Source: a virus
Length of the DNA: 64,000 nt
Reading direction: 5' to 3' (one strand)
IMG/VR virus record: IMGVR_UViG_3300038463_000401
A program made the translations under genes and the position numbers. How positions within the stretch are numbered: position 1 is the first letter of the stretch; every line of letters begins with the position of its first letter. This document shows, piece by piece, positions 4,258 through 61,707 of the stretch. The notes below the pieces were generated by a model, which was not told the DNA's origin, made no database searches, and worked only from the letters and a program-made list of their open reading frames with translations.

Positions 4258-4926
4258 ATGAAACGTGCTGCCCGGGAGTTAAAGGATAAGCTTAGCCCCA
4301 AGGGCCGCGTCGAGATCTTCATCTCGAGAGGGATGCCCGCGCTTAAGCTAGGCTTCCCGGTTGGAGATCCGTGCAATAAGGTCTTCGAGTCCTGTGCGAT
4401 TGACTTCTCTGGCGTGATGATGGTCCGCAGGCCGGAGATTTTAAACATCATCGTCAACCAGGGCAAGGATCAGGTCATCACCAACCTGACTCCTACCGGC
4501 GTAGTCTACCCGATCGTACGCATGTCGATCGGAGATCGCGGCACGATACCGTCTGACCAAACGGTGCCTAAGGTGCCAGTAGCCACGGCCACCACGCTAT
4601 ATGATGAAGTGTACCGGGATGACATCGACGCGACGGTTCTAAACGTCGGTACCCCGACAGTGCACCAAGTTCAGTTCGTCAAGGCATTTAGCTCTCTCGT
4701 CATTCCCCTCACATCCTTCTCAAACCAGGCCAATCCGATCGTTAATGAGGTGGGCCTGATCACCGCTAACCTCAACATCACCCCACTGCCGCGCGCGCCT
4801 GTTGCTGCGCCGGCAACGCCGCCATCCGACGAGAAGCTCTTTGCCACGAGAACGTTTAACTCCGTCCCATTCCTGGCTGCGAACCAGATCGCAGTGACCG
4901 TCCGTTACACCATTTTCATCGAGTGA
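4258..4926 (+). CDS. Tail-collar/fibre-attachment-like structural protein
   Basis: NIIVNQGK...RMSIGD.G...NEVGL...LFATRTF...VRYTIF pattern resembles tail-collar fibre N-terminal domains; GGAG precedes ATG 4258. Confidence 0.6.
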   Translation: MKRAARELKDKLSPKGRVEIFISRGMPALKLGFPVGDPCNKVFESCAIDFSGVMMVRRPEILNIIVNQGKDQVITNLTPTGVVYPIVRMSIGDRGTIPSDQTVPKVPVATATTLYDEVYRDDIDATVLNVGTPTVHQVQFVKAFSSLVIPLTSFSNQANPIVNEVGLITANLNITPLPRAPVAAPATPPSDEKLFATRTFNSVPFLAANQIAVTVRYTIFIE

Positions 4927-4933
4927 ACGAACT

Positions 4934-6472
4934 ATGTCCTCCTCAACACCAAATTTGGGCCTTGTTCTACCCGGGAACGGTGAAGACGTCGGGGATTGGG
5001 ACGAGCCACTAAATACAAACTTTGGCATCATAGACACGCAGGTTGGCGATATCATCGCGGAGATCGCCGCAGCGGCGTCTGGCGTTGGCACGCTTTCCCA
5101 GTTCCTCGCAGTAAGCCTTGATCTGACTACCGGAGCCCTGCTCCCCGTGCCGGAAGTAGCCGAGGCTGAAAATACCTTCCTCTACGGCTATCTCATAAAC
5201 GGCTCTAGCACACCGAATTACAACCTTAAGCAGCAGTTGGATGCGGTGGGTACGGAGCTGTGGGGCGCGCGCGGCGGCGCGGCGTCACTCAAGGCGGCTG
5301 GAGCCTCCAGCGCTTTTGAGTTCCCTAACCAGCTGGTCTCCGGTCTATCCGGCGTGATCAGCAGCTCCCCTGTGCCTACGTTCGCCGGCTCCACCGGCCT
5401 GAACGTCCACATTGACGGCTCGACGACGCCACTCATGATGATGATCTCGGGCTATACGGCGCGCATTCGCACGCTCGCCCTTGCGACCGTCCCGTCTACG
5501 ACCGGCAACGGTTATCTGGTCTGCGCGACTCAGCAGCCGAACGGCACGGTTGTGGTGGACGGCAGCGGTGGGACGAATGGCTCGACCGGCGCGGACACCC
5601 TCGGCAACATGACGTTGTTCACCGACCTCACCACAAACTTCACCACGCAGAATGTGCAGGTTGGCGACTACATCACGCTGATCAACGGCAATGATGCGGG
5701 CACCTACCTGATCCAAGCGATCGGTGGCTCGTTGCAATCCCCTGGCAGCAACATCAACCAGCTGCAGATCGTTGGCAACTTCCCCGTGGGGCTACAGTCC
5801 GCTATCAGTTACCAAATCTTTGACCCGCTTGGCGTCGTCCTTAGCGTGGTCGCCCCCGCCGGCGCGGTGCCCGGAGCAGTCCCTTCTAACTCGCTGGCGA
5901 TCGCCGAAGCGGATGTTTCAGGTGGCACCATCAGCGCGGTACGTCCTAGGAACTACAAGAACGACTTCATAGGCGCTTGGCAAGCGGTGTCCGTCGCAGG
6001 CCCGGTGATAATGCCGGAAGTGATCTATACCCACTACCTCGGCACGGACAAGCTCGATATCGCTGTGCAAATCTCCCAGGCCAATGATGGCAGCGCCCCG
6101 GTGGAAGAGATCGCACTCGGCCAGGTCTCGAACAACCTGTCAGTGGCAATCACGAATGCGCTGACCCTGACGCTCGCGACTCTGGGTCAGATCAGTCCGT
6201 CTAGCGGAACCCTGACTGGCGCGCCAAGCGGCTCCTTGGCCAACGCTCTGGCTACTGGCTCTCCGCCTGCGGCTAACTTCGAAGCGCTCAGCGGCTCGAT
6301 CTCCGCTGCCCTGTCTGGCACTGTAATCGAAACCCGCTCTCTAGCCTTAAAGTGGGATCGCAACAGTGTCCACGTCAAAGGCCTAGTGTCAGGCATCCTC
6401 TATACAGACTATACCGGGACTGCGCAGACCGCTGGCTACCTACGCGTGGTCGCTCGCAGAAGAGGATATTAA
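4934..6472 (+). CDS. Tail fibre/structural protein
   Basis: N-terminal TPNLGLVLP..G...W...LNTNF..ID is typical of phage fibre N-termini; Gly/Ser/Thr-rich. Confidence 0.65.
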   Translation: MSSSTPNLGLVLPGNGEDVGDWDEPLNTNFGIIDTQVGDIIAEIAAAASGVGTLSQFLAVSLDLTTGALLPVPEVAEAENTFLYGYLINGSSTPNYNLKQQLDAVGTELWGARGGAASLKAAGASSAFEFPNQLVSGLSGVISSSPVPTFAGSTGLNVHIDGSTTPLMMMISGYTARIRTLALATVPSTTGNGYLVCATQQPNGTVVVDGSGGTNGSTGADTLGNMTLFTDLTTNFTTQNVQVGDYITLINGNDAGTYLIQAIGGSLQSPGSNINQLQIVGNFPVGLQSAISYQIFDPLGVVLSVVAPAGAVPGAVPSNSLAIAEADVSGGTISAVRPRNYKNDFIGAWQAVSVAGPVIMPEVIYTHYLGTDKLDIAVQISQANDGSAPVEEIALGQVSNNLSVAITNALTLTLATLGQISPSSGTLTGAPSGSLANALATGSPPAANFEALSGSISAALSGTVIETRSLALKWDRNSVHVKGLVSGILYTDYTGTAQTAGYLRVVARRRGY

Positions 6473-46336: not shown

Positions 46337-47286
46337 TGTCACCAAGTGAAGAAATCAAAGCACGCTGGGCACTACTTAAACGCGACCGCGCACCATCCCC
46401 AGAGATGATGGCTGGCGAGAAGACTGCTAAAGAGCTGACCTCCAAGTCCAGGGGCAACCTACCGGACAGCGCGTTCGTCTTCCCCAAGGAACGAAAATTT
46501 CCGATACACGACGAAGCCCACGCCAGAAACGCTTTAGCCCGTGCTCACTTCGCTTCTGATCCAGCGAAGGTCAGGGCGGCTGTGCACGCGCGTTACCCCG
46601 GCATCCAAGAGAAGGTTGCAAGCGTTGCCAAAGGCCTCCTCTCCGGCCTCCTAGGCGTCAGCGACTTCACCCCGACAGTTCTATCCCGCCAGGCGGGCAA
46701 GGGCATCCGTCGCGCAGTCGTCCCCGTCGGAGCGGCCGGCGGTGCCGCGGCCCTCGTCAAGAAGCAAGAGCAGGATGAAGACGACCAGGAGCCGGCCAAG
46801 GAGGCGGGCGTGCGCGACAACCTCCACCTCGGCCTTCTTGGCCTTGGTACGGTCGGAGCGCTTTCCAGTGCGCATTCCGCGCATCGCGCCGCGACCACTC
46901 GCGAGAAGGAATACAAGCAAAAGTACGAGAAGACGGCGATGTGGGACGGGTTCGACAAAGAGGCGACCGTCTTCAATATCAAGCACGGCAAAGAGCTGTC
47001 GGCAGTAACGCAGAAGCTTCGCAACCTGATGAACAAGAAGGCCGGCATCTTCGATGCAATAGGACGGCTTGCCAAAACGGAGCACAAAGTCGTCCATGAG
47101 CTAGGACCCGAGTCTCTCGCGGCGATACACAGGATGGCCGAAGGCGTTGGAAAGAAGTCCAAACCCATGGAGATCTTGAAGAGCGGTTTGCTCGGTGCAG
47201 GCGGCCTCGCTGCGGGGACGGCTATTGGCGGCGCGCTGGGCAGCCGACTCGGGCGGCGCGTGGCGCCGGCGAAGCCTGATACCTAA
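46336..47286 (+). CDS. KxA-punctuated protein with DUF6582-like motif and glycine-zipper segments
   Basis: LPDSAFVFPKERKFPIHDEAHARNALAR; KTAMWDGFDKEA; GGLAAGTAIGGALG. Start reassigned to ATG 46336. Confidence 0.7.
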   Translation: MSPSEEIKARWALLKRDRAPSPEMMAGEKTAKELTSKSRGNLPDSAFVFPKERKFPIHDEAHARNALARAHFASDPAKVRAAVHARYPGIQEKVASVAKGLLSGLLGVSDFTPTVLSRQAGKGIRRAVVPVGAAGGAAALVKKQEQDEDDQEPAKEAGVRDNLHLGLLGLGTVGALSSAHSAHRAATTREKEYKQKYEKTAMWDGFDKEATVFNIKHGKELSAVTQKLRNLMNKKAGIFDAIGRLAKTEHKVVHELGPESLAAIHRMAEGVGKKSKPMEILKSGLLGAGGLAAGTAIGGALGSRLGRRVAPAKPDT

Positions 47287-47554
47287 AAATAACCGCAACA
47301 TTTTATAGCCACGATAACCCCTTGCGGGGCGCTTTATTTTAGTTCTTTTCTTTCGAAAAGCGATCCACTTGTTCTGCTTGCGCAGCTACATATATCGACA
47401 TGAACACAACTCCGTTCCCACGCTGTACACAACTTCCATGTCATGAATTCAGCGTAGCACTAAGGCAAGGAATACCAGCTTTCGTAACCTTCCCTTAGAT
47501 CAGTTAACAGTTCAACAGACACACAAAGATCATCCAGTAATCTAAGTGTCGCTT

Positions 47555-47569
47555 CATAATACTTATACC
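47555..47569 (-). promoter_or_regulatory. Recurrent promoter-like motif, variant (copy D)
   Basis: Plus strand reads CATAATACTTATACC (one mismatch in the CAA part). Confidence 0.4.
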
Positions 47570-47604
47570 AAATTTCTGGGTGCCCCAATATTTTGCCGAT
47601 AGGT

Positions 47605-47634
47605 AAAAGAAACCGACTGGTGTTACCCAGTCGG
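47605..47634 (-). terminator. Intrinsic terminator closing the RAMP gene plus array transcript
   Basis: Perfect 8-bp stem CCGACTGG/CCAGTCGG with a 6-nt loop, followed on the - strand by TTTCTTTT. Confidence 0.85.
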
Positions 47635-47635
47635 C

Positions 47636-48374
47636 CCTTTGCCCTTACGAAGCGATGCCCGACTGGACCTCGCCAGTACGCCTGGACGCGTAGCAAAACC
47701 TCGCCGATACGCAACCTGAGAATACTAGGCCACTACGTGAACTCGCCTCGCCTTAATTTGCCGATGCCATGCATTTCGCTACCAAGCCTCCGCATCGCCG
47801 AGAGGTGCGATACCACACCGCTACACAACTGCGCTGCACATCGCCGTGCCCCAACTGAACTTTGCGGTAACCCACAGTACCTCAACAAAAGATCGCATTG
47901 CAGAACCGCCACTCAACTCCGATTAACTCTGCTTCGCCCATGCCCTACGTCGTCATACGATGCCCTAACTTCACGGTAATGCGCTTTGCCCTCGCCAGAA
48001 CTGAACGGTGCGATGTAAGACTATGCCCTAACGGCAATAAGCTATGCCTAGACATTACCCGAAATGACAGTACCCCGACTCCACCGTGCGATGCATAGCC
48101 CCCGCAGAAAGGGACCGCGCAACGCAGCACCTGTACTTCACAGCACTAGGCTATGCCACTGCAAAACGGATCGATGCTATACCACTACCATGCTGAACTG
48201 AACGGCGCTGTGCCACAACTCAACTCAACAACAGCCTGCTTTGCCTTAACAAAACTTCACGGGATTCGACAGGGCAGCGCCGAAGCTTCGCGTCGCGATA
48301 GCTCGCCTCGCCGTGACGGGACTCGACTCCACGACACCATGCCTTCGCCCGACCACGTGGTGCCATGCCCTGCC
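47636..48374 (-). ncRNA. Non-coding 5-nt-periodic (GGY/NGY)-NN array, putative guide-RNA precursor (VIPR-like)
   Basis: The - strand right after the stop codon reads GGC AG GGC AT GGC AC CAC GT GGT CG GGC GAA GGC AT GGT GT CGT GG AGT CG AGT CC CGT... The pattern persists to the terminator, and no long - strand ORF spans it. Confidence 0.8.
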
Positions 48375-49217
48375 CTAGCTAAGCTTCTGTATTTCATGTG
48401 AAAACATTCCAGCCCCACTCGAGCGCCATTGGCCAAGCCCAACCAGTTCTCCATAGGAGAACATGATTTCCAGAGGAATCCCCGTGAATGTCGGCTCTAC
48501 CCCCTTCTTATACTCGATCGCCTTAATCAACGGCGAACCACTCATTACCTTCAATGTGAAGTTAAGCTTTGCCCCTGCAGGTACGGCCTCCGACTTCGCC
48601 AAACACACGCGCTCACCCTGCGGTGTCTTCGCGCGCAAGGAACGCTGCAGATAATAGATCGAGCCGTCTTCGTTATGCCGGAGATCCTGATCGAACGGGA
48701 TAAACTGCTTCTCGCACCGGACGTGCTGGTTGATCAAGCTCTGCGTATAGGACGTGGAGTGTAGAGGCAAGCCGTTAAGGCGAGGCGTGCCGGCGCGCCC
48801 AATCGCCTCAGCAGCCGCCTTCAGAAAACCGTTGATCATGTGGCTACCAATGCATGGCTTGTTCGTCTCCTTATCCCAAAAGAAGATTGTAGTGCCGGTC
48901 GTCTTCAACTCAACGAGCGTCTCCTTCAACGACTTGAGATCGCCAGCCACCGCGGCCTTGCGCTCATCATCGGTAAGCGTGACGCCCGTCAGCTTCTCGA
49001 GACGATCAATCAGCATGTTGACCTCCGCCTCGCCACGCTGCGCGGAGATCTGAATAGCGTCCAGGTACTTATTGATCTCCTTGTTGACCTGGCTTTCTTC
49101 GAGGATGAGCTTCCTTTCCTTGCCGATGATGTGCTTGTCGTGAACGTTAGGATCGCAGGGGTTGGTGCCGAGCTGGTCGCGGAGCAATGTCAGTTGAACT
49201 TGGAACTTCGTAAACAT
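48375..49217 (-). CDS. Solitary Cas7/RAMP-superfamily protein (Vipr-like)
   Basis: N-terminal QLTLLRDQLGT strand, IGSHMINGFLKAA helix, RSLRA.TPQGERV.LA.SE, and the C-terminal G-rich loop YG..VGLGQWRSSGAGMF; no other cas genes in the window. Confidence 0.82.
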   Translation of the reverse strand: MFTKFQVQLTLLRDQLGTNPCDPNVHDKHIIGKERKLILEESQVNKEINKYLDAIQISAQRGEAEVNMLIDRLEKLTGVTLTDDERKAAVAGDLKSLKETLVELKTTGTTIFFWDKETNKPCIGSHMINGFLKAAAEAIGRAGTPRLNGLPLHSTSYTQSLINQHVRCEKQFIPFDQDLRHNEDGSIYYLQRSLRAKTPQGERVCLAKSEAVPAGAKLNFTLKVMSGSPLIKAIEYKKGVEPTFTGIPLEIMFSYGELVGLGQWRSSGAGMFSHEIQKLS

Positions 49218-49294
49218 CTTAACCCTTTCAGGGAAATGGCAAGCCCAGCCTTGGGAACACCAAAGCTGGGCGTGATGGTAAGTCAGTAACTGCG

Positions 49295-49603
49295 TTACTT
49301 CTTCGGCGGAAGCGGGGCGGGCGGCTGAATACCAGCCTTCTGTTCGAGGGCAGCGAGGCGGGAATTAACCATACCGGCGTAGTCGTTGACGGCTTTGCTG
49401 TTCTGGTCAACAACTTGAGAAACATGCGCAGCATTGGCTGCCACGTCCTCCAGCTTGATCTGCCCGCGGCCGGCAAACCAACTACCGCCTCCTAGGACAA
49501 GAGCCGCGAGGCCTAGGACGTAGCCGCGGTCAGCGACCCGTTCCCATCTGTCCATGCGAACGACAGATTCGGTGTGGACGAACTTAGTAGCTTCTTCTCC
49601 CAA
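49295..49603 (-). CDS. Small single-pass membrane protein
   Basis: GYVLGLAALVLGGGSWF hydrophobic segment followed by a coiled-coil-like tail. Confidence 0.6.
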   Translation of the reverse strand: MGEEATKFVHTESVVRMDRWERVADRGYVLGLAALVLGGGSWFAGRGQIKLEDVAANAAHVSQVVDQNSKAVNDYAGMVNSRLAALEQKAGIQPPAPLPPKK

Positions 49604-49658: not shown

Positions 49659-49940
49659 TTAGCGCGAACGGTTCACGGCTTCCTTGAAGCCTTTACCCGG
49701 CCTGAACTTCGGGTACTTCGACGCGGGGATGCGAATCTCCTCGCCCGTTTGCGGGTTGCGGCCAGTGCGAGCAGCGCGGGCGCTTTTCTCAAAGATGCCG
49801 AAACCAGCCAAGACTACCTTGTCTCCCTTTTTCACGGCAAGTGTGATCTCACTCGTGATCACGCCGAGCACTTCTTTCGCGGCCACTTTCGTGATGCCGG
49901 CCTTCTTAGCAATCGCACTAACCAAGGTTTGAGCGTTCAT
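49659..49940 (-). CDS. hup: HU-family DNA-binding protein
   Basis: GDKVVLAGFGIFE...RAARTGRNPQTGEEIRIPA...PKFRPGK signature; AGGAGG RBS. Confidence 0.96.
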   Translation of the reverse strand: MNAQTLVSAIAKKAGITKVAAKEVLGVITSEITLAVKKGDKVVLAGFGIFEKSARAARTGRNPQTGEEIRIPASKYPKFRPGKGFKEAVNRSR

Positions 49941-59900: not shown

Positions 59901-60925
59901 GCGGTAAATGGAACTTCCTAGACGAACAGAATATCGCCCCTACCGAGATGTACACTTCTGGTAAGTTGCCACCAGGACCGGTCTGCAAGAAGTGTATGAA
60001 GCCAATCAATGTCCGCGCCGGTAAGTGGATGTCCACGTCACCAGGCAAGTCTATCCAGGGCTACAGAATTCCGCAGCTCATGGTGCCGTGGATTGTCGGC
60101 ACGTTAAGCCAGTGGTTAAAGTTAACGTGGAAGCGTGACAACTATCCTTTTGGTCAGTTCTATAACGAAGTTCTCGGGCTCAGCTATGACTCTGCCTCAA
60201 AACCGGTTACCCGAGACGAGCTAATAGCCTGCTGCAGCGATTACGACCTATGGAACCCCGAGGCAATGACCCAGCAGCAGCTGGCAGAGGCCCGGGGATC
60301 GGTTCTGACGGCCGGGGTCGACTGGGGTGAGGGAATTGACGGGTCAGAGAAGTCGCCCTCTGGAAAGGTACGGAACGCCTCCTACACGGTGCTTACAATC
60401 GGCACCTATATCAACCAGCGGCAATGGGCCGTCAAGCTGGTCAAGAAGTACATGGGTAAGGAGATCGAGCCCGACCACGTCGTGGCGGACATCTGCCGCA
60501 TCGTCGGGGGGCTTAACGTCGCGATCACCGGCGTTGACTGGGGCCACGGCTGGGGCGTCAACAACTCTCTCGTCCGCAAGCTTGGGCCGAGCCGCGTCGT
60601 CCAGTATCAATATTTGCCAAAGCTTAAACAACGGATGAAGTGGGATCCGCTAGGATACCGGTACCATCTTCAGCGAAACTTCATGCTGTCCGAGCTTTTC
60701 TATGACCTCAAGCACGGACATGTTATGTTCCCGAGATGGGCTCAGATTGAGCCGTACGCCAAAGATATTTTATCAGTGTATGCCGAGTATTCTGAGTACC
60801 GACGAGAGATCAAATATGACCATAGGCCAAGTGATCCCGACGATTGGCTGCATAGCCTCCACTATGCCAAGCTAACTAGCGATATTCATTTGGGAAAGAG
60901 CCGTCGGTACACTTTGCCTGAATAA
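56942..60925 (+). CDS. terL: Terminase large subunit with two inteins
   Basis: GGAGG RBS and GTG 56942. Intein removal restores Walker A-like SRQVEK-TT and Walker B DL-CIDE. C-terminal nuclease motifs AGVDWG and PDDWLHS. Confidence 0.9.
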   Translation: MSTAEEIDTLDEEKDYDDEPLPPDPTTVAKVRQEFNENGTIRKCIKARKSAFVHNLIYLDGAKFSFLGREYLLPIYDRKDSRILLKTSRQVEKCCHVNSTVVLASGLEKRASELVPGDRIVAAGEGWHQAVDTVIVSETNGDKPCVRIKTRLGSTLEVTLNHPLKKLTTWIDAGQLKKGDKLAALRSVGHFGKISEPLAPLLGLMIGDGAMTESCCRFTCKDPTIQAWFEQLYGPINFHVDNRSGTRNYYVGINSPVIAYVKQHGLFGKVAYQKELPPICFSYTKESTRELLRGLWATDGHCKNVTKSKIDLVYCTTSPILARQVRMLLRKFGVVTVQRENRPSNGGRLAYIIRVVTRRSIEAFHRELGPIPGKPFELPTCKAKSNLDTLPQEVHGLILKARKDNGSHWTRDSLGKLGLIQHMEYCPTYEKVSELQKVARSEEVQRVLDSDIIWDEVVSVEDIGVQPTWALQTGTETFLSDFVVNHNTTSLANHLVVRSVVKPYNKSLYVSPSHTQTRQFSSEKLKPAIERSPFIMRYLQDSQVSSQVFEKGFTNGSFIFLRSAFRSADRARGISARDLCYDKDAYALTRLGWKKISDIVEGDELADVNDSGLVEWNKPTRIISKKHTGRMISFEHGGFHLRVTDDHSLWVNFKVKAKSYKEDRYEFSKASALLEDRSMGFKMTCSASWPLSNEPRTIINGVDLLTKEFNALLGWYLAEGCMSSGYPVLNLHEKDLTYIEPLLKSMGLRYNIYPNAHNKSGPGKTLWVMSKPLGSYFKRLGKSYTKFIPRDVLDAGLYLDELLKGLFLGDACYHKGERWQHGTLRTRSKQLAEDAQEAWLRLGKPAALHTRMHPNKARNLNPDEPFELVPMYEVCAYDLDYIIFWRSQRDARIIPEEVVEEDVFCFTIKNHRPIVKGNHSSKPVISGNCIDEIQDFYTSEIPVIRECTSHFPDSTEIMAGTPKSHDNPIEIYWGETTQNEWLVPCSCGKWNFLDEQNIAPTEMYTSGKLPPGPVCKKCMKPINVRAGKWMSTSPGKSIQGYRIPQLMVPWIVGTLSQWLKLTWKRDNYPFGQFYNEVLGLSYDSASKPVTRDELIACCSDYDLWNPEAMTQQQLAEARGSVLTAGVDWGEGIDGSEKSPSGKVRNASYTVLTIGTYINQRQWAVKLVKKYMGKEIEPDHVVADICRIVGGLNVAITGVDWGHGWGVNNSLVRKLGPSRVVQYQYLPKLKQRMKWDPLGYRYHLQRNFMLSELFYDLKHGHVMFPRWAQIEPYAKDILSVYAEYSEYRREIKYDHRPSDPDDWLHSLHYAKLTSDIHLGKSRRYTLPE
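57221..58402 (+). mobile_element. TerL intein A (in the Walker A loop) with LAGLIDADG endonuclease
   Basis: RQVEK|CCHVNS...TLNHPL...LMIGDG...GLWATDG...VVNHN|TTS. Confidence 0.93.
58679..59725 (+). mobile_element. TerL intein B (just before Walker B) with LAGLIDADG endonuclease
   Basis: ARDL|CYDKD...TDDHSL...WYLAEG...LFLGDA...VFCFTI...ISGN|CIDE. Confidence 0.92.
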
Positions 60926-60945
60926 ATAAATACGACGTAGAACAC

Positions 60946-61707
60946 ATGGCCAAAGAAGAAAAAATCCTTAAAACTAGTCCAGCTAAACTGGCAGCTGCTC
61001 ACCGTTATAGAGAGAAAACTAAAGATCGGATGAAAGAGTATCAACGTACTTATAGAGAGAAAACTAAAGAAAAGAAGGCAGAGTACTTCCGTCTTTATAG
61101 AGAGGAAAACAAGGCCGGACTTATTGCAAAAGCGAAAGAATATTACGCTCGCAACAAAGAGATCATGGCTATTAAAAAGCGGAATTGTCCTTCAGCAACC
61201 CCCGAAAAAAGAAGCAAAGCCAACGCTGAGTACCGTGCCGAAAATAGGGAGAAACTCAAGGCTATACGCGCCACCCCAGAATACCGAGCCGATCATGCTG
61301 CTCGTGTGCGGAAGCTACGAGCAACCAGTGCGCTAGCCTGTATTCGCGGCAGACTGGCAGGCAGATTAAATCATGCCATGAGAACCTACAGAACAGAGAA
61401 ATCTGCTTCTACCCTCAGGCTGGTTGGTTGCACTCGCGAAAAACTCCGAGCATACTTGGAGTCAACCTTACCCATAGGGATGACTTTAAAGATGGCTCTA
61501 GACGCCGGATTCCATGTAGACCACATCAGACCGTGCGCCTCTTTTGACCTTACGGATGAAGAACAGCGGCGGGCGTGTTTTCATTATACCAACCTGCAAA
61601 TGCTACCCTCGGCAGTCAACAGGTCTAAGAACTCTAAGTGGAACGGGAAATATTGGAGAACCCCAAGGAAGGAGGCCTCGCGTGAACAAGGAAGCGTATC
61701 AGTTTGA
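60946..61707 (+). mobile_element. HNH endonuclease-like protein with basic helical N-terminal repeats
   Basis: FHVDHIRPCASFDL...CFHYTNLQML....NRSK. Confidence 0.82.

Follow-up and report, generated by a model that had tools for sequence, protein, structure and literature searches.

VIPR systems, described in 2026, are CRISPR-related RNA-guided DNA silencers that consist of a lone ancestral RAMP, Vipr, and of vrRNAs (10.64898/2026.04.26.720920). According to the text of that preprint, the vrRNAs are runs of 9-16 GGY/NN pentamers in which the NN bases pair with DNA and every third target base is skipped, the systems fall into seven types, and VIPR loci 'typically' carry vap; its methods list NNNGG, YNNNG and NNNNG as alternative repeats (10.64898/2026.04.26.720920). 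The same text describes staggered arrays, where one vrRNA ends in what is also the beginning of its successor, an architecture that it does not place among those confirmed by small-RNA sequencing (10.64898/2026.04.26.720920). The published structures show one Vipr protomer per repeat, in which H17 and D177 recognise G1, R138 and W178 recognise G2, and R179 together with a narrow pocket recognises Y3, while the skipped target base is held by an alpha-helical bundle (10.64898/2026.04.26.720927). The protomers form a right-handed filament with six of them per turn in the free, binary state and five on DNA, in the ternary state (10.64898/2026.04.26.720927).

VIPR is very recent, and in the preprint's text array architectures other than that of type II are described only briefly so far. 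Here we examine a phage locus found in a 64,000-nucleotide stretch of viral DNA, called the window below, with the phage genome SUSP1 (KT454805) as a control; in the SUSP1 vrRNAs, GGYNN units follow each other strictly every 5 nt, with no 6-nt step, and tails are present. That the window locus is a fresh instance of the kind published in 2026, with an explicit array grammar, is a solid conclusion.

The vipr-like gene and the array behind it

The locus is made up of the following features.

48375..49217, minus strand: vipr-like gene, 280 aa, a lone RAMP modelled as Cas7/Csm3-like, with an enlarged alpha-helical insertion (residues ~25-105)
47638..48374, minus strand: vrRNA array of 737 nt, ~145 N-G-Y-N-N units in ~27 modules of 5n+1 nt (Viterbi segmentation)
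47601..47637, minus strand: predicted intrinsic terminator (47637-47610), with an 11-bp stem that includes 6 G-C pairs, a 6-nt loop and a run of T

The first base of the array is the base right after the vipr stop codon, and the predicted terminator closes the vipr-array transcription unit at the array's end. On the minus strand the G residues of the array recur with a period of 5.2 nt (power 7.0, harmonic at 2.6), and across the 64-kb window it is only here that 5.2-nt-periodic windows form a sustained run. A Viterbi segmentation allowing units of 5 or 6 nt gave columns in which position 2 is G in 83% and position 3 a pyrimidine in 96% of the ~145 units, the composition of positions 4, 5 and 1 being near-uniform. 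A preliminary description of this DNA had remarked that the first triplet base is often not G, and the segmentation agrees, with G at position 1 in 38% of all units and in 23% outside module starts. The locus thus carries tandem 5-nt repeats with a consensus related to GGY next to a vipr-like gene, as a VIPR locus should, and 11 of the 12 related loci do likewise.

Beyond this regularity the array is plain. Tandem Repeats Finder (TRF) reported no tandem repeat over the array region, no exact repeat of at least 13 nt occurs in the array, and the repeat search returned short partial matches only. At E <= 1, an Rfam search of 46500-49500 found no ribozyme, hammerhead included, and no known family; its single hit was a chance snoRNA match inside the gene. 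Secondary structure is not in excess in any third of the array (fold z-scores of -0.7, +0.6 and +0.1), the window array has no recurring 3' tail, and the variable triplets are not depleted in stop codons, with 4 against 4.5 expected in the forward direction and 7 against 5.4 in the reverse. Three of the window modules, at 47852-47866, 47998-48012 and 48195-48209, contain the unit pair CGTTC-AGTTC (or AGTTC-AGTT), and this recurrence may mean that several modules are aimed at similar sequences. About 40 nt past the terminator, at 47562-47569 on the minus strand, GGTATAAG is followed by TATTATG; this putative phage promoter motif may be the start of the next minus-strand transcription unit.

The 280-aa protein belongs to no Pfam or PHROG family. 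An AlphaFold (AF2) model built on 34 homologues reached a pLDDT of 78, the helical insertion being modelled at low confidence. The top structural matches of the model are all Cas7-type RAMPs: Csm3 (9g9a_D, Z 12.6; 6ae2_B, Z 12.3), the type VII Cas7 (8yhd_A, Z 11.6) and, further on, Cmr4, Cas7-11 domains and the type IV Csf2; Foldseek gave 8z4j_J with an E-value of 1.5e-6. The model therefore points to a Cas7/Csm3-like RAMP fold. A profile comparison with hhalign aligned the protein weakly to the SUSP1 Vipr family (probability 76%, E 2.2e-5, 132 columns including the G-loop) and, over the C-terminal half, to the single SUSP1 Vipr sequence (probability 67%), while tblastn across phage GenBank gave no link between the two families. 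A VIPR effector is expected to be a minimal RAMP with an RRM core, a glycine-rich loop and a thumb, and the modelled Cas7-type fold with its C-terminal G-loop agrees with this. Since the protein looks like a Cas7/Csm3-type RAMP and aligns, if weakly, with the SUSP1 Vipr, we take the locus to be a VIPR system whose repeat is the relaxed YNNNG and whose array lacks tails, probably one of the staggered type as far as the preprint's text describes it.

The G-loop differs in a way that goes with the relaxed repeat. In the present family it reads G260-L-G-Q-W-R, with Q263 in 34/34, W in 33/34 and R in 34/34 sequences; in the SUSP1 family it is G-[LVI]-G-D-W/Y-R, with D177 in 22/26. The residue that reads G1 is replaced and those that read G2 and Y3 are kept, which fits N-G-Y units instead of G-G-Y, as a correlation. 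The earlier proposal of a relaxed NGY variant gains from this change of the G1-reading Asp of SUSP1 Vipr to an invariant Gln, and from the listing of YNNNG as an alternative repeat in the part of the preprint that sets out its methods (10.64898/2026.04.26.720920).

The neighbours of the locus in the window are genes for HU, SSB, a single-chain RNA polymerase and tail proteins, and across the related loci no gene at all is conserved as a neighbour of vipr, a vap included. The HU/IHF-type DNA-binding gene (49659-49940, minus strand; PF00216, E 3e-31) has the same orientation as vipr and is the second gene upstream of it. It has no tblastn match in the twelve IMG/VR loci (L001-L012) and is probably not a vap.

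Extra-G punctuation and its conservation

The occasional 6-nt steps mentioned in the preliminary description are real, 28 of the ~145 units of the window array being 6 nt long, one every 5-7 units. Without exception, the unit that follows such a step starts with G (28/28), against 27/116 units elsewhere. This G is found whatever unit is given the extra base: wherever the spacer from a Y to the next GY measures 4 nt and not 3 nt, the base before that GY is G. In the simplest description, the separators of the array are GY, each fifth to seventh separator is GGY after a 4-nt spacer, and the modules measure 5n+1 nt. The window modules open with a unit of distinct consensus, GGC-R-(not G).

Module starts (first G of GGY), minus strand: 48374, 48343, 48312, 48281, 48245, 48214, 48183, 48157, 48131, 48100, 48074, 48048, 48027, 47996, 47990, 47964, 47938, 47907, 47881, 47850, 47819, 47788, 47762, 47731, 47705, 47674, 47643, 47637

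The distances between steps in the window are 31 nt (13-16 times, by how the ends are counted), 26 nt (9 times), 36 nt and 21 nt (once each) and 6 nt (twice).

The same grammar is found in relatives of the locus. The 280-aa protein has 245 metagenome homologues at 50-60% identity and no homologue among 185,579 species genomes. Twelve related loci on IMG/VR contigs of 42-175 kb were compared. In 11 of them a G periodicity of 5.15-5.2 nt follows the homologue on the same strand, with protein identity down to 30%; the twelfth holds a gene fragment only. Under identical segmentation, 6-nt steps followed by G-G-Y recur in all 11 related arrays. The logo of 268 boundaries reads N-G-Y-N-N-N and then G (78%)-G (94%)-Y-A/G (83%)-W, against 26-33% G at position 1 of ordinary junctions in these arrays. 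Module lengths in the clade are 21 nt (12 cases), 26 nt (43), 31 nt (65), 36 nt (35) and 41 nt (12), so modules of the clade comprise 4-8 units, with 5 or 6 the usual size in the window. Taken alone, the identity of the locus as VIPR together with its GGY/5n+1 punctuation appears to us very likely.

The region from vipr through the array to the terminator is identical base for base in Logan contigs of two further public samples (SRR11569172, L014; SRR23247739, L015), which argues that the array is stable and not subject to the fast turnover of a CRISPR array. The short array of a second phage, P0039, is likewise identical across six contigs (L016-L021), and no gain or loss of modules was seen among the copies compared (the window array and its two samples; the P0039 array in its six contigs).

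Several of these arrays have features of their own. P0039 is a much smaller phage (contigs up to 36 kb), in which vipr adjoins an ERF recombinase gene; its array of ~190 nt (L016:3305-3495, and the same in L017-L021) contains an internal duplication of ~52 nt, with copies starting from GGTTA at ~3335 and 3387 that differ at variable positions only. In L008, three identical 16-nt, three-unit modules, GGTGAAGTAGTGTGGT, lie at 4295-4310, 4491-4506 and 4661-4676; each copy is bounded exactly by module marks and their neighbours differ, and the module could represent either a guide present in several copies or a conserved element that resembles a spacer. The same array holds a 41-nt module duplicated in tandem (4512/4553). 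In IMGVR_UViG_3300045017_000165 (G004, 60844-61588; L004:1-750), another array with a 5.2-nt period is found in addition, ~3.3 kb upstream of vipr. It has no RAMP gene adjoining it, the adjacent ORFs being of 106, 144 and 631 aa, and stands alone as the upstream vrRNA of SUSP1 is described to do. Finally, in L001 a gene for a 443-aa papain-family cysteine protease (4821-6152; PF00112, E 7e-19) is placed between vipr and the array.

Modules, guides and alternative readings

Beside the anatomy of the array, its conservation in the clade, the terminator and the modelled protein fold, we propose a scenario of function that draws on the published systems. Transcription would run on from vipr into the array and end at the terminator. 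As in the solved SUSP1 complex, each 5-nt unit would carry a single Vipr protomer, which would grip the fixed G-Y and leave the variable bases exposed to pair, with gaps, with target DNA. GGY would no longer need its first G in this clade, in keeping with the Gln that replaces Asp in the G-loop, and the canonical GGY-R at the module head would set the register. Processing would take place at the marks, and the variable bases, as in the systems of the preprints, would guide binding to rival DNA.

Our preferred reading is that of a VIPR guide array punctuated by an extra G, whose modules are likely the individual guides of a tail-less staggered array, and we assign to this statement as a whole a probability of about 0.55. 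Its last element, that the modules are individual guides, is evenly balanced when taken alone. The handle-like consensus of the start unit and the variable length of the modules speak for it, as does the implausibility of a continuous R-loop triplex of 435 bp. On the other side, 5-6 units supply 10-12 informative bases under the published xNN rule, which is short for a specific guide, and very short modules exist, of 6 and 21 nt in the window and of 16 nt, three times, in L008. The negative target searches described below, the weak alignment with SUSP1 Vipr and the lack of a conserved vap count against the reading as a whole.

A more specific form of this idea, which we consider rather improbable, is that every 5n+1 module serves as a complete guide by itself and gives rise to exactly one filament turn, its head GGY-R acting as the nucleation and register signal, roughly a one-protein equivalent of the crRNA 5' handle. 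Since the first base of all other units is free, a unit may read three target bases and not two, and the modules would then be contiguous or near-contiguous guides of 15-21 nt, written in a second VIPR code.

Targets were sought under both pairing rules. Modules were decoded under an NNx and under an NNN rule, once including and once omitting the first unit; 10-unit windows across the steps, with zero or one additional target base, were taken as well. All of these were compared with 1.4 Mb of related phage DNA (the window, five whole related phage records and other loci); the matches stayed at the level of reversed controls. In IMG/VR an 18-base NNx pattern from L008 had no match, and a 16-base pattern had 11 matches in 6 sequence families, about as many as expected by chance, 1-2 of them in a wobble-consistent frame. 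Two NNN-decoded 18-mers from window modules gave no match in IMG/VR, nor did a 20-mer in the 185,579 species genomes.

It is also conceivable, though in our judgement somewhat unlikely, that the 6-nt steps are hinges or register corrections made once per turn in longer Vipr filaments, and that a guide spans several modules, for example the 2-4 that the spacing of the octamers discussed below would suggest. The usual module length of 31 or 26 nt is that of the RNA wound into a single turn of the filament in the published Vipr structures (10.64898/2026.04.26.720927), and the vrRNAs of 9-16 units given in the preprint's text correspond to about two modules. The modules of 6, 16 and 21 nt, too short to serve as lone guides, and the few informative bases per module under the xNN rule both speak for such hinges, and some of the internal repeats of L008 span module boundaries. 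However, the decoded 10-unit windows across steps, with zero or one extra base, did no better than reversed controls in the 1.4 Mb searched, a range of 4-9 units is unexpected for a fixed geometric correction, and the start unit has a handle-like consensus of its own, GGY-R-W.

The preliminary description placed the marks elsewhere, in octamers of the form GGC(A/G)(A/T)AGC taken as the processing or nucleation boundaries of guides of roughly 8-14 units. Five such octamers do lie on the minus strand, at 47931, 47983, 48041, 48150 and 48238, with exact sequence, and their spacings are the stated 52, 58, 109 and 88 nt, which amount to 2, 2, 4 and 3 modules.

48238..48245, minus strand: octamer GGCAAAGC, a module's first unit plus A-G-C of the next unit; the previous unit is 6 nt long
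48150..48157, minus strand: octamer GGCATAGC, module start
48041..48048, minus strand: octamer GGCATAGC, module start
47983..47990, minus strand: octamer GGCAAAGC, module start
47931..47938, minus strand: octamer GGCGAAGC, module start
48176..48183, minus strand: variant GGTATAGC, module start

As for the variants that had been reported, GGTATAGC at 48176 and GGCGAAGG at 48342 are as described, while the sequence at 47637 reads GGGCAAAG and GGCAAAGG begins one base away, at 47636. All five octamers and GGTATAGC coincide with a unit that comes directly behind a 6-nt step. This does not hold for the two GGCRAAGG variants, which do not begin modules but consist of a 6-nt unit and the GG with which the following module opens.

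The idea of an internal punctuation was sound, and it is tied to the 6-nt register shifts, but the octamer is not the mark: 22 other starts in the window have the 6-nt step and GGY without it. That the octamers are a distinct signal for guides of ~8-14 units is very unlikely in our view. They do share one register, all at module starts, and their spacings of 52-109 nt resemble the vrRNA lengths given in the preprint's text. The octamer pattern occurs 23 times in the whole 64-kb window against 12.6 +/- 3.3 in shuffled sequence, and 5 times in the array, where shuffling of units or columns leads one to expect 1.3-1.5 (P ~0.006-0.008, about 0.007 with units preserved), a modest excess. In the profile across homologous loci, which the preliminary description had called for, the generalised octamer GGYRWAGY stands at 53 of the 210 module starts in 12 arrays against 45.6 expected from independent columns. 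Because it is this close to the column expectation and is also present at GGY units that are not starts, the octamer is not a separate signal, and its AGC half is not conserved in the clade. The conserved mark is instead the extra G, which occurs 28 times in the window, mostly at intervals of 26 or 31 nt, and is kept in the 11 related arrays. The octamers are a subset of the marks, module starts in which the second unit has A as its first base by chance; their first half is the conserved mark and their second half an ordinary unit. According to these results, the true punctuation of the array is the extra G and not the octamer.

Least probable of all, and hardly to be expected, is a tract with no guide role, either a decoy or sponge RNA for the Vipr of rival phages or a DNA element phased at half a helical turn, for although no target was found and the period of 5.17 has half the numerical value of the B-DNA repeat (5.2 bp ~ 10.4/2), the signal is strand-specific, bounded by a terminator and always downstream of vipr on the coding strand, the array lies beside its own Vipr gene in 11/12 loci, and the variable positions are near-uniform, as expected of guides.

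Comparison with known systems

The locus is a clean and long example (~27 modules) of a tail-less array, confirmed by 11 relatives. Its grammar can be used by array callers: GY separators, GGY with one extra base every 5-7 units, and lengths of 5n+1. Two ties to the published structures can be tested, namely that module length equals a filament turn and that the Asp-to-Gln change accompanies the loss of the first G. If the modules are separate guides, no ribozyme, tail or spacer is needed to delimit them, and compact multiplexed designs could profit from this.

The Bacillus subtilis TRAP protein offers a likeness from outside the RAMPs. TRAP binds (G/U)AG triplets 2-3 nt apart as an 11-mer ring, with 11 triplets in the leader RNA, and its role is regulatory. 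The likeness to the window array is that many copies of one protomer would recognise short fixed triplets spaced ~5 nt apart in unstructured RNA; however, the fold is unrelated and the role is regulatory and not that of a guide. A TRAP-like, sponge or nucleocapsid-type RNA was our first reading of the array, dropped after the Cas7 fold match and the VIPR preprints.

Closer are the Cas7, Csm3 and Cmr4 proteins of types III, VII and IV, which provide the best structural matches (Z 10-12.6). Class 1 CRISPR systems are alike in that RAMP protomers form a filament along a guide RNA and a thumb interrupts the pairing periodically. In contrast to their repeat-spacer arrays and multi-gene cas operons, the window locus has a single RAMP gene, no CRISPR repeats (zero TRF repeats) and no other cas genes, its step is of 5 nt and not 6 nt, and each unit contains a fixed dinucleotide. 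Carriage by a virus and the lack of any association with CRISPR or cas genes are also traits of VIPR.

With the type II VIPR of SUSP1, the window system has in common the RAMP fold, the G-loop GxGxWR, 5-nt units with a fixed G-Y, an array after the gene on the same strand and a phage as carrier. The SUSP1 system comprises a Vipr of 195 aa, vap1 and four vrRNAs of 12-16 units, each with a pseudoknotted tail and its own spacing. The window array, by contrast, has no tails, its first G is free and a 6-nt step occurs every 5-7 units; its Vipr exceeds that of SUSP1 by 85 aa, has a larger helical insertion and carries Gln where SUSP1 Vipr reads G1 with Asp, and no vap neighbour is conserved. The SUSP1-like type II architecture of strict GGYNN units with a structured 3' tail is thus absent here.

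The closest likeness is to staggered VIPR. The 5n+1 rule, the extra G, the 31-nt mode and the GGY-R start do not appear in the preprint's text or in the legend of its Fig. S18, the material on which this comparison is based. As that text describes it, however, a staggered system consists, like the window locus, of a single phage-borne gene for a Cas7-like Vipr and, behind it, a long series of 5-nt units that has no tails and a relaxed first base, and its YNNNG repeat equals the N-G-Y-N-N of the window array.
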